A stretch of 64,000 nucleotides of DNA from Candidatus Woesearchaeota archaeon (GTDB lineage: Archaea > Nanobdellota > Nanobdellia > SCGC-AAA011-G17 > JACPIM01), in NCBI GenBank assembly GCA_016188045.1, contig JACPIM010000002.1:17198-81197 (forward strand). Direction: 5' to 3'. Shown piece by piece: positions 6,251 through 23,115 of the stretch. The notes under the pieces were generated by a model that saw only the letters and a program-made list of their open reading frames with translations, had not been told where the DNA came from and ran no database searches. The first letter of the stretch is position 1; each line of letters opens with the position of its first letter. The position numbers were made by a program, and so were the translations under genes.

Positions 6251-8170
6251 TTAAATCAACCTATCCAAGTTTAGCTTTGCTTTATTAATATTTTCATTCT
6301 CAATGAATATTCTATACCATAGCTCAAAATTAAGTATATTCCACATCTGTCTGGCGTAATACAGCTTAGATTTATCCCTAACTTTCAACATCTTTTTAAA
6401 ATATTCTTTTTTAGCTAACTTTTTCCTCACTAAAATAGAATTATCTAAAACCCGATTAGTTAGTTCTTTCAAATCTTTGTTTATCCATTCATCTATAGGA
6501 ACAAAGAATCTTTCTTTTTTAGCACTATAAATCTGCTTAGGTAGTTTATCTTTCATAGTTCTTCTTAACAAATATTTATCTTTTAATCCATTTAATTTTA
6601 AATTGCTCTTAACTTTGGACATTAATTCTACAATTCTATGATCCAAAAAAGGAACCCTTGCTTCAATAGCATGTGCCATAGTCATTTTGTCAACTTTCAT
6701 CAACAAATTATCGCATAAAGAAGCGTTTATCTCACAATCCAAGTTTTTATTCAGTAAACTATTCTTTTTACTAAAATAAAAGTTAAAGTCATTTACTAGG
6801 TCATTATAATACTTACTTAACTTTTCATCTCCAAATTCTTCTAGATCCTTCTTATCAAATACTGTTATTAAGCTCAAATAAGTCAAAGTTTCATTATTCA
6901 AATTTTCCAAGAATACTTTAAATCTCTCAATGCCCTTTTCACCTAAACTCTCGCTATATCTGAAGAGTTTATTTAATAACTGTTTCGGCAGATTATTAAC
7001 TAGATTAGGAACATTTTTTCTTAGTGGCAAAGGAATTATTTTTCCGTATTTCCCCAATTTCATTATTTTATATTGCTCATATCCACCAAAAACTTCATCG
7101 GCTCCCTCCCCTACTAAACAAACAGTTGCTTTTTTCTTTGTTTTTTCAGATAAAACATAAGTTGGAATGGCTGCGGGATCTGCCAAAGGCTCGTCAAAAT
7201 GCCAAATTATTTTAGGCAATAATTCTATTGAGTTTGGTTCAATAATAATTTCATTATGATCGGTATTAAAATAATCAGAAACCAATCTCGCATTTTCTAA
7301 ATCTCTCTCTTTACCAAAACCAACGGAAAAAGTCTTTATAGATTCGTTTTTTAATTTGCTGGCAACTTGGACAATAGTACTGGAATCTATTCCGCCAGAT
7401 AAAAACACACCAATAGGAACATCACTTGTTAACTCGCCCCTAACACCATCAGTTAATAGATTATATAGTTCTTTGCTTAATTTATTTAAATTGCCATTTT
7501 CTTCACTAAAATTAATTTCCCAATATTTATTGATTTCAATTTTTTTACTTTCATATTTTATATAACATCCAGGCTGAAGTTTATTTATATTTTTAATAAT
7601 AGTTCTAGGTCCAGGTATAAATCTTAAAGATAAATAATAACTTAGAGATTGTAAATTAATTTCTTTTTTTATTTCTTCATTTAGTAATAAAGATTTAATT
7701 TCAGAAGCAAAAAACAAAATTCCCTCTTCAAAATAATAATATAATGGTTTAATCCCTAGCCTATCTCTAACAATTAATCCTTTTTTGTTTTTAATGTCCC
7801 ATATACAGAAAGAAAACATCCCAATTAATTTGTTTAAAAACTTTTCACCATGCTCTTCATATAAATGAACCAAAACTTCCGAGTCTGAATTTGAGTAAAA
7901 TTTATGTCCTGCTTTTTCTAATTCTCCTCTTAATTCAATATAATTATATATTTCTCCATTACAAATAACTAAAATAGTTCCATCTTCATTAAATAAAGGT
8001 TGTTTTCCCTTCTTGCTTAGATCAATAATACTTAATCTTCTATGTCCAATACTAACATTTTTATCAATAAAGTAATCATAATCATCAGGTCCCCTATGAG
8101 AAAGTATACTAGTCATTTTTCTAATCAATTCTTTATCTTCTTTTCCTAATATTCCAGTAATTCCGCACAA
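6251..8170 (-). CDS. asnB: asparagine synthetase (glutamine-hydrolysing)
   Basis: N-terminal MCGITG class II amidotransferase Cys2 and an SGGIDSS PP-loop. 639 aa. Start abuts the stop of the upstream GT2. Confidence 0.85.
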   Translation of the reverse strand: MCGITGILGKEDKELIRKMTSILSHRGPDDYDYFIDKNVSIGHRRLSIIDLSKKGKQPLFNEDGTILVICNGEIYNYIELRGELEKAGHKFYSNSDSEVLVHLYEEHGEKFLNKLIGMFSFCIWDIKNKKGLIVRDRLGIKPLYYYFEEGILFFASEIKSLLLNEEIKKEINLQSLSYYLSLRFIPGPRTIIKNINKLQPGCYIKYESKKIEINKYWEINFSEENGNLNKLSKELYNLLTDGVRGELTSDVPIGVFLSGGIDSSTIVQVASKLKNESIKTFSVGFGKERDLENARLVSDYFNTDHNEIIIEPNSIELLPKIIWHFDEPLADPAAIPTYVLSEKTKKKATVCLVGEGADEVFGGYEQYKIMKLGKYGKIIPLPLRKNVPNLVNNLPKQLLNKLFRYSESLGEKGIERFKVFLENLNNETLTYLSLITVFDKKDLEEFGDEKLSKYYNDLVNDFNFYFSKKNSLLNKNLDCEINASLCDNLLMKVDKMTMAHAIEARVPFLDHRIVELMSKVKSNLKLNGLKDKYLLRRTMKDKLPKQIYSAKKERFFVPIDEWINKDLKELTNRVLDNSILVRKKLAKKEYFKKMLKVRDKSKLYYARQMWNILNFELWYRIFIENENINKAKLNLDRLI

Positions 8171-8182
8171 AGTTTAAACCCC

Positions 8183-8923
8183 CTATACTTTCTGTGCTAT
8201 AATAACCGTTTCAACACCAAAAGGATACTTAATGAATTTCATTAATATAATCTCTAGCTTAGCAATTAGTAAAAAAAAGCTATTTAAAAATTTAGGTCCA
8301 GTTCCAATTGAAACTTTCTTACTTTCTTTATAGGTCAGTCTCTGATAATATGTGAAAAAAATATCTGGTAAGAACGCAAAAAAATTGCAGTAATTTTCAT
8401 ATATTATTTTTAAACTGTTTTTTTCTAAAAGTTTCTTAATTAAATTTTTAGTATATCTTCTTTTATGATGTGAACTATAATCAATATCACCCCATAAAAA
8501 ACCAAACACCGGAACAACAATGAATAAGTATCCATTTTTATCCAATAAACCAAATAGATTTCTAACAGCGTTATCGTCATTTTCAGTATGTTCTAATATA
8601 TCAGAAGCCAAAATAAAATCAAATTTTCCTCTAGGCAAAGTTTCTTTTTTCTCAATATCTGCCTTATAGCATTCAATGCCCTTTTCTTTGCAGATCTTCA
8701 CGGCTTCTTCCATGAAATCAATCCCAACCACTTTATTTTTCTCACTTAATTCTTTTAATAAAAATGAATTCTGTCCAACATTGCAGCCAACATCTAATGG
8801 ATTTTCAAATCCAATTTTCAGTCTTTTAATCAATTTTTTAATTAAAATCATTCTAGAAACATTATACCAATTATATGAACTCCTTTCATTTAATAGTTTA
8901 TAATTATCTATATCCATAGCCAC
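8183..8923 (-). CDS. class I SAM-dependent methyltransferase
   Basis: Motif I LDVGCNVGQN and post-I/II FILASDILEHT. Confidence 0.7.
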   Translation of the reverse strand: MAMDIDNYKLLNERSSYNWYNVSRMILIKKLIKRLKIGFENPLDVGCNVGQNSFLLKELSEKNKVVGIDFMEEAVKICKEKGIECYKADIEKKETLPRGKFDFILASDILEHTENDDNAVRNLFGLLDKNGYLFIVVPVFGFLWGDIDYSSHHKRRYTKNLIKKLLEKNSLKIIYENYCNFFAFLPDIFFTYYQRLTYKESKKVSIGTGPKFLNSFFLLIAKLEIILMKFIKYPFGVETVIIAQKV

Positions 8924-8987
8924 TTATTTACCTTAAAAAACCTTTTAAACCTTCTTAAACAGTATTTTACTCATTTTCACTAATAAA

Positions 8988-10361
8988 ATGAAAAACAAAG
9001 ATATAATTCTGATTATTACTGGATTTTCCTTAGTTATTATAATATTAAATTTATTAATAAAAAACGTGCTTTACACAGACGTAGGAGACTATTTGGCTGT
9101 GGCAAAATACTTCTCAAATAATATAGTTTCTAGGATAAGAAGCACACATTCATGGGTATATGGTTTATTTTTATCTCAATTTTTAAAAATTTGGTCTTCT
9201 GTTTTTTTAGTTAAACTAGTAAACAGTTCTTTCTTAGTTTTTACTGCAGTATTATTATATAATCTTACGAAAGATAAAAAAGTGCTATTTTTGTGGATAT
9301 TATCCCCAGTAGTCTGGTATATGACACCACAAATAAGCCCAATCTTGCCTTCTGCTTTCTTATTATTGCTTTCTTACAAATTCATTAAAGAATATGAATC
9401 AAAAGAAAAATTAAAATACTTAATTTACTCAGCCTTGCCATTAGGCTTATCTTCTATATTATGGGACTCAATGATTCCAATTTCAATTTTCTTTATCTTG
9501 GTTTTTTTCTTTAACAGAAGATTAAAAGAAATCTTGTTTTTTGGTGTTTTTTATTTCATTGCCTTTTCAATAAGATTCATCCTAGACTATTATCTATTTA
9601 GTTATCCATTTTTTTCTTTATTTAGGTTCTTCGGAGGTTCTTTATTAGTTTATTTAAGACAAGGAAATTATACCCACATTTCAAATCCAGTTTTAAATTA
9701 TATATTATACTTAGTAATAATCTCACCATTTTTATTTAAAATTTACAAATTAAATTTTAAAGAATATAAAAAAGAATTAATTTTCTTGTTATTAACAGTT
9801 TTAATGTTCATCTCATCAAGCAATCAACTAAGGTATTTTCTGATTTTAGCACCAATTTCAATTTTATTAATTTCAAAAGTAATGACAAAAAAAGAATTAG
9901 TTCTAAATTCAATACTCTCGGTTTTATTAATACTGTTCCTACTTTATCCAAGTTTTGTAGATAACTCAGAAAAATTAATTCAGGAAGATTTAAATCAGAT
10001 TGCAAAAGATTTTCCGAATGAAGTTTTTTTTGCAGGCAATGAACAAGAAGGTGACGCTTACCTAGTCTACTCTTTAGTCTATTGGGGAAAAGAAATAAAA
10101 GAAATAATTAGCTGGCAAGACTTGCAACTGGTATTAAGTAATAAAACTAACTTCCAGCAATATAGGTATGAGAGTAAGGCTAAAGTGGGCGAAACAAGAA
10201 ATGTATGGCTCGAATTTGGTGTCTCTAGGGCAGATAATAGGACTTATGAATATGTTGATTATTTAATATCATCTAAAAAAGAAACCTCATTAAAAAATTT
10301 TAAGCTTGTTAAATCATATAAAACTTTAAATGTTTTTAAAAAGGATACTACTAAGAAATAG
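8988..10361 (+). CDS. polytopic membrane protein, possible GT-C-type glycosyltransferase
   Basis: 457 aa with about 10 TM helices followed by a soluble C-terminal domain. Sits in the glycosylation context. No diagnostic motif was recognised. Confidence 0.4.
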   Translation: MKNKDIILIITGFSLVIIILNLLIKNVLYTDVGDYLAVAKYFSNNIVSRIRSTHSWVYGLFLSQFLKIWSSVFLVKLVNSSFLVFTAVLLYNLTKDKKVLFLWILSPVVWYMTPQISPILPSAFLLLLSYKFIKEYESKEKLKYLIYSALPLGLSSILWDSMIPISIFFILVFFFNRRLKEILFFGVFYFIAFSIRFILDYYLFSYPFFSLFRFFGGSLLVYLRQGNYTHISNPVLNYILYLVIISPFLFKIYKLNFKEYKKELIFLLLTVLMFISSSNQLRYFLILAPISILLISKVMTKKELVLNSILSVLLILFLLYPSFVDNSEKLIQEDLNQIAKDFPNEVFFAGNEQEGDAYLVYSLVYWGKEIKEIISWQDLQLVLSNKTNFQQYRYESKAKVGETRNVWLEFGVSRADNRTYEYVDYLISSKKETSLKNFKLVKSYKTLNVFKKDTTKK

Positions 10362-12733: not shown

Positions 12734-13365
12734 AATATTCTCTTTAATTCATTTAAATTTTTAACAATATAATCAGGTTTATATCTTTTTAATTCTTTTT
12801 CTTTGTAATATCCCGTAGTCACAGCTATTATCTTTACTTTTGCTTTTTTTCCTGCCGTAATATCATAAATAGAGTCGCCAACAACAAAATCAGGTTTTTT
12901 CTTAAAAAACTTCCCAACTTTCAAGATTTCATCAGGATAAGGCTTGGATCTTTTAACATCATTGTTCCCAATTAATAAATCAAAATATCTCTTACTAATG
13001 CCCGCTCCATTTAAAAGAACATATATATTGTTTCTGGAACAGTTAGAAGTAATAGCAATCTTATACTTTTTTTTCTTTAAATATTTTAAAATCTCTAAAG
13101 AAGATTTAAGTTTTTTAGCATATTTAAAATAACCGCCAGCCAAATATCTATCATGTAATTTTTTTATTTCATCTTTAACTTTTTTGCTTGATTTGGGAGC
13201 TAATAGTTTAATAAGTTCCTCTTTTGGTCTACCCAATTTACCGAACATATATTTTTCAGTTTTACTTTCTAACCCAAAAGAGTTTAATGCTCTGTTATAT
13301 GCTTTAGTATGTGCTTTTACAGAATCAACTAAAGTATTATCAAGATCAAAACAAACTATTTTCAT
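12730..13365 (-). CDS. HAD-superfamily hydrolase subfamily IA (phosphoglycolate-phosphatase-like)
   Basis: Motif I FDLDNTLVDS (DxDxT), motif II ITSN and motif IV VGDSIYDITAG. Translationally coupled between the R15P isomerase and the Cys-rich protein / rbcL. Confidence 0.7.
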   Translation of the reverse strand: MKIVCFDLDNTLVDSVKAHTKAYNRALNSFGLESKTEKYMFGKLGRPKEELIKLLAPKSSKKVKDEIKKLHDRYLAGGYFKYAKKLKSSLEILKYLKKKKYKIAITSNCSRNNIYVLLNGAGISKRYFDLLIGNNDVKRSKPYPDEILKVGKFFKKKPDFVVGDSIYDITAGKKAKVKIIAVTTGYYKEKELKRYKPDYIVKNLNELKRIL

Positions 13366-20650: not shown

Positions 20651-21322
20651 ATGGATAAATGGACAGGATTAAGCAGAACAGCAGAAAGCATAAGAAATCC
20701 AAAAATAACTAGCAATATCTATCTTCATTTTTCTACTCTATCAGAAGATATTAAGAAGTATTCTCATCTGGCATCAGGAATTTTATTGGATATTGGCTCT
20801 GGTACCTCACCATATAAGCCTTTTTTTCACCATGTAAAAAAATATATCACTTTGGATTTTTTTTATAATAAGCAAAAACCAGATATAATCGCAGATGCTT
20901 TAAAATTGCCGATTAAAAGTGATTCAATAAGTACAGTTTTATGTACTCAAGTACTAGAACATATACCTTATCCGCAGATATTAGTTGATGAAATATATAG
21001 AATTCTAAAAAAAGACGGTATTTGTATATTAACAACACATATGGCAACTCCTTTGCACGGCCTGCCTCATGATTACTTCAGATTTACAAATATGGGCTTA
21101 AAAAATGTGATATTTAAAAATTTTAGAGAGGCATTTATTAAAGAAAACGGCGGTTCTTTGTTGGCAATATTTCAATATATAAACTGGTCCGTAAGTTCAA
21201 GATTACCAAGATTTTTATCTTTGCCATTAATAATTTTAATTAACTTAATGATAAAACCACTAGATAAATTATTCCACGATACCAATCTTACAATAAATTA
21301 TATAGTTGTAGCAAAAAAATAA
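20651..21322 (+). CDS. class I SAM-dependent methyltransferase
   Basis: LLDIGSGTSPY (motif I) and LCTQVLEHIPYP. Confidence 0.7.
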   Translation: MDKWTGLSRTAESIRNPKITSNIYLHFSTLSEDIKKYSHLASGILLDIGSGTSPYKPFFHHVKKYITLDFFYNKQKPDIIADALKLPIKSDSISTVLCTQVLEHIPYPQILVDEIYRILKKDGICILTTHMATPLHGLPHDYFRFTNMGLKNVIFKNFREAFIKENGGSLLAIFQYINWSVSSRLPRFLSLPLIILINLMIKPLDKLFHDTNLTINYIVVAKK

Positions 21323-21388: not shown

Positions 21389-22129
21389 ATGGAAACTCAG
21401 ACTAAAAAATATGAACCAAGAATCATTAGGGGAAGAATAGAATTATGGGTTCCCCATCAATATGGAGAAATAGCCTTTGCTCCATTAACAAATCTGGGTG
21501 ATTATCAACAGATCAGAACAGAAATTCTTGGTGATAGTGAAAGAGAAACTAACCAAAGGCTTCCAACAGGAGACGAAACTGCCTCTCAAATTCATGTTGC
21601 TTACTGTACTCCAAAGCCAGAAATTAAAAATGCGCAGGAATATAAAACAATTAGAGATATAATTAGAACAAATCGGATTCATGTTTTTAACAGAATTGGC
21701 TGGACTTTTGCAGGAAAGTATGTTCTACAAGATACAACAGCAAACGCCACAAGTGAACGATTAGATATAGATATGCTTAATGAAATGCTTAAAAACGGAA
21801 CAGAAATTAATGGTGTTAAATTCAGCACAGATGGAAGAGTTAGATTTGCTCCAAGAGAAACTTATAAATTAGGCAAACATACGCCAGAGTCATTATCATT
21901 AGACGGAGGTGTTATTGCTGAATATGGTATAGACGGTGCGAGAAAGCTTGCAGAAGTTTCTAAAAATTTTAGATATAATACAGTTACTTATGGAATTGAA
22001 GTTAAAAAAAGAAAGGATTTAGAGCAAAGAGTGTCCGCGTTTATTGGCGACGTCGGCAACTGGCTTTTTCTTAACGGCGGCTACCATGGTGACAGCGTGG
22101 GCGGTTGTGCTTCCGGGGTATGGAAGTAG
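21389..22129 (+). CDS. hypothetical protein, candidate DGR variable (target) protein with the VR at its extreme C-terminus
   Basis: 246 aa with no recognised domain and visibly GC-richer than its neighbours. The last 29 codons (..VSAFIGDVGNWLFLNGGYHGDSVGGCASGVWK*) are the variable copy of a repeat whose template copy lies 330 nt downstream. Confidence 0.5.
   Translation: METQTKKYEPRIIRGRIELWVPHQYGEIAFAPLTNLGDYQQIRTEILGDSERETNQRLPTGDETASQIHVAYCTPKPEIKNAQEYKTIRDIIRTNRIHVFNRIGWTFAGKYVLQDTTANATSERLDIDMLNEMLKNGTEINGVKFSTDGRVRFAPRETYKLGKHTPESLSLDGGVIAEYGIDGARKLAEVSKNFRYNTVTYGIEVKKRKDLEQRVSAFIGDVGNWLFLNGGYHGDSVGGCASGVWK
22032..22117 (+). repeat. DGR-like variable repeat (VR), in-frame at the 3' end of CDS 21389..22129
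   Basis: An 86-nt copy of 22359..22444 with 20 mismatches, 16 of them at positions that are adenine in the downstream copy. The 3' 14 nt (ggttgtgcttccgg) are identical in both copies. Confidence 0.6.
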
Positions 22130-22358
22130 TGGCGAAGCCACCGAAAATTTTTTAGTAAATTTTATTAACAAGTAGTCTTATTATTTTTTCTGTCTTAGTG
22201 AAGCATAAATCTTATAATTCCAATTTGGAAAGGTTTTTGTTTTACTAGGGCTGCATGTCAATTTACTAGTGCATGGACGATTGAGTCTAAATGCCATGAA
22301 ATTCAGAAATTCCTTACGAGGGATTTTGGTGATTAATCGGTAAATTGGCTACACAATT

Positions 22359-22444
22359 GGTCCGCGCTTAATGACGACAACGGCAACAGGCTTAACCTTA
22401 ACGGCAACTACCATGATAACAACAGGAACGGTTGTGCTTCCGGA
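22359..22444 (+). repeat. DGR-like template repeat (TR), AAC-codon rich, non-coding
   Basis: In the VR reading frame it reads ..DDNGNRLNLNGNYHDNNRNGCASG, with 7 AAC codons in 19. Every AAC except two is replaced in the VR by G/T changes at the A positions. No ORF of the VR frame continues through it. Confidence 0.55.
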
Positions 22445-22515
22445 ATAGCTCTATTCACTAAGACATTATATTTAATATGGAAGCTAATAAATTTTATTCT
22501 TGTTGGTTTCTATTT

Positions 22516-23115
22516 TTATCTAATTTTTAATAAAGCAATATTCCAAACACCAGAAGGTTTAAATTTGATAATCTTTCCATATTTCACACATAAATCCATA
22601 AATTCTTTTTTTGTCCAGTTATTAACATGTCCTGGAGTATTTCCAAATTTTTTCAAGTATTTTAATCTTAAAACATTGGCTATTCTAAACCAGGGTTCAT
22701 TAGGTACAGATAATAACAAATATTTTTTACTTAACTTGCTCATAATCTCAATTGCTTTTTCATAATTCTCTAAATGTTCTAATACTTCTAGGCTCATCAC
22801 CAAATCAAAACTTTTATCTTTAAAATAATCTAATTTGAATATATCCCTAGTACCATACTCTATATTTTCCAGTTTATTATTAGAGATAGCATATTTAATT
22901 GCGTCCTTTTCTTTATCGATCCCAACTATTTTGGCCTTTATTTTTTTAGCTACTTCTATCGTAACAAATCCCTCACCGCACCCAATATCAAGTACGGATT
23001 TAGGATTAACAAGCGAAATACTTTCTATGATATCATTGTTAAACTTCTTAAGTATTAATTTCATTAAAGGATTCTTATTAATATGCTTTTTCTGCACTTG
23101 CCAGGTTTGTTCCAT
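22516..23115 (-). CDS. class I SAM-dependent methyltransferase
   Basis: VLDIGCGEGFV (motif I) and LVMSLEVLEHL. Confidence 0.7.
   Translation of the reverse strand: MEQTWQVQKKHINKNPLMKLILKKFNNDIIESISLVNPKSVLDIGCGEGFVTIEVAKKIKAKIVGIDKEKDAIKYAISNNKLENIEYGTRDIFKLDYFKDKSFDLVMSLEVLEHLENYEKAIEIMSKLSKKYLLLSVPNEPWFRIANVLRLKYLKKFGNTPGHVNNWTKKEFMDLCVKYGKIIKFKPSGVWNIALLKIR

Follow-up and report, generated by a model that had tools for sequence, protein, structure and literature searches.

The element described here, a diversity-generating retroelement (DGR) cassette on a 64-kb stretch of DNA from a Candidatus Woesearchaeota archaeon, a tiny groundwater organism (contig JACPIM010000002.1; the whole stretch is referred to as the window), finds its closest described counterparts in the DGRs of Nanoarchaeota (DUSEL4; Paul et al. 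2015, PMC4372165). There, as in the intact relatives of our cassette, the target gene, template repeat (TR) and reverse transcriptase (RT) gene follow one another in a compact order without Avd, and nanoarchaeal genomes hold several such elements (4 or more each). The two also share a GGGGT-type initiation of mutagenic homing site (IMH) in the variable repeat (VR), paired with a GGAAT-type counterpart in the TR (IMH*), a GRA-loop hairpin and a target of C-type-lectin fold (5ioo_A). RT-less cassettes have already been described in Nanoarchaeota, and the hypotheses of a fossil or of remote diversification were left open (PMC4372165); likewise, Nostoc all3226 keeps TR-VR homology without a nearby RT (PMC7517822). 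The two partial nanoarchaeal DGRs consist of a target with its VR and cis elements only, whereas the window cassette has kept its TR and a structured leader RNA (RT-16). Its hairpin lies at or after the stop codon, while theirs is inside the gene. Moreover, a remnant of the RT start marks the loss in the window as a deletion, and a syntenic sister lineage permits a test that favours homing after this loss. RT-less partial DGRs in Nanoarchaeota and a TR-VR remnant in Nostoc are thus known already; new here are the RT start remnant, which proves a deletion, the old junction shared between lineages, and a combination of cassette conservation and adenine-specific VR turnover that favours a cassette serviced in trans over a pure fossil.

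The better known DGR of Bordetella phage BPP-1 (mtd, avd, TR, brt) resembles the window locus in its adenine-specific transfer from TR to VR, its IMH/IMH* pair, the hairpin downstream and the C-type-lectin target. The window cassette differs in its archaeal host, in having neither Avd nor an RT gene, and in carrying its structured RNA on the 5' side of the TR, opposite to the 3' priming spacer of BPP-1 (the RT-10 region, PMC5737381). In BPP-1, the TR, avd and brt are able to act in trans from a plasmid (PMC5758913). An RT acting on an unlinked locus is also the rule in the remote-target DGRs of Treponema, Legionella and cyanobacteria (PMC5758913, PMC7517822); in those systems, however, the TR stays with the RT and the VRs are remote, whereas in the window the TR and its leader stay with the VR and the RT alone is gone.

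A cassette complete except for its reverse transcriptase gene

The window locus is a nanoarchaeal-type DGR in which every part is present except an RT in cis. The target gene (21389-22129, + strand, 246 aa; NCBI tag HYV88_00245, Candidatus Woesearchaeota) carries the VR (22033-22120, + strand) as its C-terminal 30 codons. Together with the TR (22360-22447, + strand), the VR forms a direct 88-nt near-repeat at an offset of 327 nt. Counted on the ungapped repeat cores, 17 of the 20 mismatches fall at TR adenines (12 A>G, 5 A>T), a strong bias given that adenine makes up 28 of the 88 TR bases (P = 1.4e-6 for at least 17 of 20). A preliminary description of this DNA had also counted 20 mismatches and had placed four of them off adenine; the total stands, and the non-adenine changes are three (C>T at 22040, C>T at 22069 and G>T at 22098), reaching four only when the boundary base 22032 is included. 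Its suggestion that these reflect drift since the last homing event is reasonable in a genome of about 30% GC, all three changes being to T and all being specific to the VR when compared with the related loci L001 and L005 (relatives and assemblies used for comparison are labelled L001-L120). When each adenine of the TR is replaced by N, the resulting pattern matches the window at the VR and TR sites only, and none of 100 shuffled sequences. In the reading frame of the VR, AAC, AAT, GAC and AGG codons abound in the TR, whose adenines lie at codon positions 1 and 2.

The cis elements expected around such a pair are in place. The IMH (22103-22120, GGTTGTGCTTCCGGGGTA) occupies the 3' end of the VR and the IMH* (22430-22447, GGTTGTGCTTCCGGAATA) the corresponding part of the TR, with CGGGGT in the former against CGGAAT in the latter. 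We take this pair to be of the nanoarchaeal type, since its GGGGT/GGAAT pattern agrees with the published signature TGGGGT/TGGAAT (PMC4372165). A hairpin, GTGGC-GAA-GCCAC (22129-22141, + strand, from the DNA fold), overlaps the last base of the target-gene stop codon (22127-22129, + strand, from the open reading frame (ORF)) and represents the cruciform or hairpin element of target recognition. The hairpin is kept in L001 and L005, and other relatives have equivalents with GRA-type loops, as known from nanoarchaeal DGRs (PMC4372165). The VR/TR pair is thus a genuine DGR variable and template repeat. Further downstream follow a conserved TATA-like box (TTTTATTAA, 22160-22168, + strand), for which a promoter role is likely, and, about 30 nt beyond it, the RT-16 RNA motif (Rfam RF03019; 22193-22357, + strand), directly 5' of the TR. 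With its own RT gone and all its cis-acting RNA and DNA elements kept, the cassette has the make-up of a non-autonomous element.

No RT was detected in the 64-kb window by a motif scan, by tblastn with the RT of an intact relative, or by a six-frame search with a profile hidden Markov model built from 80 RTs of the clade with filters off (best E = 0.14), in line with the preliminary description, which had seen no ORF with RT motifs. In particular, no RT of the clade, with its [I/L]GxxxSQ and YxDD motifs, stands beside the TR in the window; the RT of the related locus L006, for instance, carries the DGR hallmarks LGNLTSQ and YVDD. Intact relatives (L006/L007, L094, L095/L096, L097, L099 and ten cassettes in representative genomes) have the compact order target with VR, RT-16, TR and RT, the RT start codon lying about 25-30 nt after the TR. 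None has an Avd or other accessory gene, so that the Avd which the preliminary description had expected near the TR is not part of this type of element.

Alignment shows the window to be collinear with these relatives through RT-16, the TR, the spacer and the first 8 codons of the RT. The spacer between TR and RT (GCTCTATTCACTAAGACATTATATTTAAT, 22448-22476, + strand) is conserved, and GGAATAGCnnTAnTCnCTAAGACATT within it is common to the window, L001, L005 and the RT-bearing L006, L097 and L099. It is followed by a start codon and about 8 codons of an RT gene (ATGGAAGCTAATAAATTTTATTC, 22477-22499, + strand). The encoded N-terminus, MEANKFYS, compares with METSNLYS followed by QIYEINNLFLAWKKASKGKTKK in L005 and with MKTYTNLYPQIYDLKNL in L006; at the nucleotide level, the remnant aligns with ATGGAAACTAGTAATCTTTATTC of L005 and with the RT starts of L006, L097 and L099. 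Homology to the intact relatives stops at TATTC|TTGTTGG (22499/22500), from where non-homologous DNA (22500-22515, + strand) leads to the end of a methyltransferase gene in convergent orientation, at its stop codon (22516-23115, - strand). Because collinearity with intact relatives runs into these first 8 codons, the RT did not simply lie elsewhere: it once stood in cis directly downstream of the TR and was deleted, 8 codons being left behind. The interval 22130-22515, in which the preliminary description had suggested looking for an RT in related loci, is indeed where intact relatives have their RT start and the window its remnant.

The same deletion junction is found in the syntenic loci L001, L098 and L100. 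L001 represents a sister lineage of the window, to which L002-L004, L098 and L100, obtained from other samples and by other assemblers, also belong. With this junction common to the window and L001, the RT was lost before the two split, in an old deletion shared by both lineages. In L005, whose target is 73% identical and adjoins a ribosomal-protein operon, the RT was lost independently, 33 codons being kept. A metagenome scan with the TR/RT junction motif recovered four loci, namely two sister-lineage copies and two intact relatives, and no new carrier of the deletion junction. Six contigs of the sister lineage, obtained from other samples and with other assemblers, have the RT-less structure too. 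Two Logan assemblies also match the window exactly over the parts that they cover: L012 spans both the TR and the RT junction, and L013, ending about 185 nt past the target stop, covers the target and VR only.

Probable homing after the loss of the reverse transcriptase

The sister lineage allows the history of the cassette after the deletion to be followed. Between the window and L001, the flanking genes and the target outside the VR are 92-94% identical (83-87% at third codon positions of the flanking genes), and two other intergenic spacers differ at 19 of 111 nt (about 83% identity). The non-coding cassette (22130-22515), by contrast, differs by 8 substitutions in 386 nt (98% identity) and has thus diverged about 8 times less than intergenic DNA elsewhere. 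The low-divergence tract as a whole (22099-22534) has the same 8 substitutions in 436 nt, against an expectation of about 33 at a divergence of 7.6% (P = 2e-7); beyond it, from 19 nt within the methyltransferase gene onwards, differences are dense again. When polarised with L005, five substitutions fall on the window branch and three on the L001 branch, so that both branches are constrained.

The repeats behave differently from one another. The TRs of the two lineages are identical at 86 of 88 positions and the VRs at 69 of 88, the VR differences being concentrated at TR-adenine sites (15 of 28, against 4 of 60 other sites; Fisher P = 2e-6). In L001, all 21 VR/TR mismatches are at adenines. 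In addition, the TR of L001 has a derived T>C change at the equivalent of 22414, and the L001 VR has this C too, whereas both repeats carry T in the window and in L005, the outgroup. Gene conversion from VR to TR was considered as a source of this common C and ruled out, the adenine-site mismatches flanking it being intact on both sides. From these two lineages we infer that, in the clade that shares the deletion, the cis elements stayed under purifying selection and retrohoming took place once the RT was lost; such homing from TR to VR would need an RT acting in trans.

Consequently, the reading that we favour, with a probability of roughly 0.55, is that the cassette is a non-autonomous DGR serviced in trans by an RT encoded elsewhere. 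A promoter within the cassette would still drive the RT-16-TR RNA, a closely related DGR RT from another locus of the genome would take this RNA as template, and the adenine-mutagenised complementary DNA would home into the VR by means of the IMH and the hairpin. ORF-less group II introns are mobilised in a similar manner by the intron-encoded protein of another copy. The analogy is that of a non-autonomous retroelement RNA with cis structure that obtains its RT from a related autonomous copy; group II introns belong to another class of element with another chemistry, the DGR neither splices nor moves by itself, and servicing in trans is in our case inferred. Several features make it plausible that RTs are used in this way: those of the clade are conserved (61-72% identical across Pace-, Woese- and Nanoarchaeota, all DPANN, among the best 120 of 7,998 matches), the 3' half of RT-16 is nearly invariant across cassettes with unrelated TRs, single genomes hold several DGRs, and function in trans has been demonstrated experimentally for avd, TR and brt (PMC5758913). 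As to the number of elements per genome, two RTs lie on one 565-kb contig (among the same best 120 of 7,998 matches) and two RT-16 cassettes occur in one metagenome-assembled genome (MAG). A virus-borne source of the element is unsupported, the RTs on viral contigs being only 34-40% identical and of the phage type of DGR RT.

A number of observations weigh against servicing in trans. A trans-acting RT for the window genome was not found, the search of this genome covering its 64-kb window only, and no HYV88-tagged entry is among the best 120 of 7,998 RT matches, a result that is uninformative. The RT-16 subfamily of the window scores only 54-58 bits, and the window lineage has a derived A>G at 22253 in the conserved GGCUACA of this motif. 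The direct evidence for homing after the deletion is strong for the L001 lineage only, and a single covarying site supplies part of it; in principle, recombination in a recent tract, and not selection, could lie behind the high identity of the cassette. The window VR has its three non-adenine mismatches and does not differ between the MAG and two Logan assemblies. The sister-lineage protein P0002 is the same on 11 contigs, so that diversification is not visibly ongoing. Finally, the target family holds clearly decayed loci (L008, L010, L118-L120), so that RT loss can be a first step of decay. Activity in trans would thus be infrequent, and the VR of the window's own lineage has perhaps not been recently rewritten, given its three drift changes off adenine and its identity in three assemblies; rewriting may even have ceased there.

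The strongest rival is that of a fossil DGR, without reverse transcription since the RT deletion, its VR frozen and the locus slowly decaying to a stand-alone target gene. We regard this as clearly less probable than servicing in trans, though as a serious contender. It accounts directly for the absence of an RT from the 64 kb, for the three mismatches off adenine in the window VR, all to T, and for a VR that does not vary among assemblies. Later stages of decay are found in relatives, from L005 (a VR indel and 3-4 non-adenine mismatches) through L010 (only a C-terminal RT remnant) and L008 (a stop in the VR) to L118-L120 (target only), and removal of the diversification machinery after a good variant has been fixed was proposed previously (PMC7517822, PMC4372165). 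A pure fossil, however, predicts near-identical VRs in the window and L001: about 2 adenine-site differences would be expected of a VR frozen since the deletion, and 15 are seen among the 28 sites (P = 2e-10). Nor does it explain why the L001 VR tracked a derived change of its own TR, or why the non-coding cassette is so much more conserved than other intergenic DNA at the same divergence. A fossil state restricted to the window's own branch in recent time could still be true. Of the two options put forward in the preliminary description, an RT elsewhere or a fossil, the comparative evidence thus favours the former, at least for what followed the shared deletion in the sister lineage, while for the window genome itself either may hold; to both options must be added that the RT formerly stood directly downstream of the TR.

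Alternatively, the deletion allele could have spread recently by recombination between diverged lineages, the identity of the cassettes then reflecting recent ancestry and the VR differences predating the loss of each lineage's own RT. The sharp edges of the low-divergence tract (22099-22534) against flanks that are 92% identical are as expected from such an event. But both crossovers would have to fall about 20-60 nt from the edges of the functional unit, the derived C common to the TR and VR of L001 and absent from the putative donor-type TR is left unexplained, and the same unit is also highly conserved among the three cassettes of the window's own subfamily (window, L001 and L005) in unrelated genomic contexts. 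Recombination is accordingly improbable. Last and least probable by far is an artefact or chance resemblance, in which mis-assembly dropped the RT or a tandem-duplication remnant mimics the TR/VR pair: repeats can break or collapse metagenome assemblies, and L013 does end about 185 nt past the target stop, but the same junction is present in the MAG contig, in Logan L012 and in the six sister-lineage contigs of different samples and assemblers, the adenine bias (P = 1.4e-6) speaks against it, and plain duplication, the alternative to a DGR that the preliminary description had envisaged, is excluded because RT-16, the IMH/IMH* pair, the hairpin and the RT start remnant are all present.

If the locus is indeed serviced in trans, the minimal set needed in cis would comprise promoter, leader RNA, TR, VR, IMH and hairpin, which would be useful for engineering programmable diversification, and it would probably be through recognition of the RT-16 leader that a single RT could act on many templates. 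Surveys of DGRs start from the RT gene and do not see template/target cassettes that have none; DGR activity and target repertoires would then be under-counted in DPANN archaea, and perhaps elsewhere. If the locus is a fossil, it represents an ordinary stage of DGR decay, as known for Nanoarchaeota and Nostoc.

The RT-16 leader and the recurrence of RT-less cassettes

RT-16 has been published merely as a motif near RT genes, and only RT-10 has been tied to a DGR (Weinberg et al. 2017, PMC5737381). In the window, a local cmscan search gives a full-length match (model positions 1-158) of 54.1 bits, above the gathering score of 50 (E = 2e-7). The motif stands at the same position in every related cassette examined, with 54-109 bits; most relatives reach 88-109 bits, and the window has a low-scoring variant with a shortened inner hairpin. 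The family is defined by proximity to RT genes, and RT-16 does adjoin one in L006, L094, L095, L097, L099, L103, L105-L108, L110, L114, L116 and L117, in contrast to the window. In all DPANN cassettes examined, about 15 in number, RT-16 lies immediately 5' of the TR and ends in GGCUACA 0-6 nt before it (for example L006 10805-10959, L094 4748-4888 and L095 4728-4887, with further cases in L103-L117). No match to the RT-16 pattern was obtained in viral contigs. RT-16 therefore looks like the leader of a DGR template RNA. A TTTATTAA box that precedes the first RT-16 hairpin by about 25-33 nt is conserved despite unrelated TRs and is present in the window (22160-22168), L001, L005, L006, L097, L103, L109, L112 and L114. 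It is likely to be the archaeal TATA box of the template RNA.

Scanning of representative-genome contigs with the RT-16 pattern yielded 17 loci, none of them from the MAG of the window, which lies outside that collection; 13 cassettes from GTDB representatives could be evaluated. Six have an intact RT ORF, 3-4 have an RT split by frameshifts (L103 4629-5682, L105 5403-6402, L110 4348-5446 and L117 2247-3301) and three have no RT. In other words, 3-4 of the ten RT genes beside RT-16 cassettes in these MAGs are split; true pseudogenes would account for this, as would homopolymer errors in the assemblies. Near its N-terminus, the RT gene of L103 contains a tandem duplication of 19 nt (two copies of AGCTAGAAAAGGAAAAACA). 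The three RT-less cassettes are L109, L111, which keeps a 20-codon RT remnant, and L115; their RT-16 motifs score 74-108 bits, their VR/TR mismatches are adenine-biased, and their RT losses were independent. An RT-less TR beside its VR, which the preliminary description had called unusual, is thus not rare in this clade, considering also the independent loss in L005 and the partial DGRs known from Nanoarchaeota (PMC4372165). We tentatively suggest, at slightly less than even odds, that DPANN archaea maintain natural RT-less cassettes, that is, self-promoted RT-16-TR modules with their own target which are kept by purifying selection and rewritten by a common pool of near-identical RTs at other loci. 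If this is so, the RT would be expendable in cis, and several independent template/target pairs could share one enzyme.

The target protein and its surroundings

The target protein is identical to HYV88_00245 in the NCBI entry of a Candidatus Woesearchaeota (DPANN) MAG, where it is encoded on a contig of 233,513 bp. It has no Pfam match, and a sequence-profile search of the PDB was also empty. An AlphaFold2 model built from 22 homologues has a predicted local distance difference test (pLDDT) score of 92.7, and its sole significant Foldseek match in the PDB is 5ioo_A (E = 4.6e-5, TM-score 0.43-0.50), the C-type-lectin DGR variable protein AvpA of Nanoarchaeota (PDB 5IOO, from the system of PMC4372165). 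The target is thus predicted to adopt a C-type-lectin fold that displays the VR. Outside the VR (window 21389-22032 against L001 10001-10644), the target gene differs by 9.3% at codon positions 1 and 3 each and by 4.2% at position 2, the corresponding values for the neighbouring genes being 3-6%, 2-4% and 13-17% at positions 1, 2 and 3. Because positions 1 and 3 differ about equally, unlike in the neighbours, the scaffold of the variable protein would evolve under relaxed or diversifying selection, as these codon-position rates are read.

Stand-alone homologues of the target (L118 4001-4800, L120 575-1330, L008 8605-9400 and L010 8962-10095) keep G-rich VR-like ends, IMH-like GGGGT or GGAGT motifs, hairpin remnants and the TTTTATTAA box, without RT-16, TR or a full RT. 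L008 has a stop codon within the VR, only the last ~73 RT codons are left in L010, and L118-L120 consist of the target only. Together, L118, L120, L008 and L010 appear to form a decay series of one element. In L006 (12182-15732) and L010 (10227-14071), two unannotated proteins of about 588 and 422 aa follow the DGR; the 5' ends of the two genes in L010 have a 60-nt stretch that is 87% identical (10232-10291 and 12811-12870).

Directly upstream of its target, L001 has a two-gene insertion (7003-9725, between the equivalents of window positions 21322 and 21389) that the window does not have. It encodes a 411-aa 2_5_RNA_ligase2 (2H phosphoesterase-like) protein and a 494-aa AAA_14/DUF4143 ATPase. 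A role of these genes as DGR accessory genes was rejected, as neither the window nor other cassettes contain them. The methyltransferase genes that the preliminary description had placed beside the TR are confirmed, the neighbours of the cassette being methyltransferases and glycosyltransferases of a surface-glycosylation cluster. No tRNA gene was found in the 64-kb window, and its GC content is uniformly about 30%. The glycosylation cluster (GT2, GT4, PMT_2, Polysacc_synt) makes up much of the region from 14 to 32 kb, around the DGR cassette.

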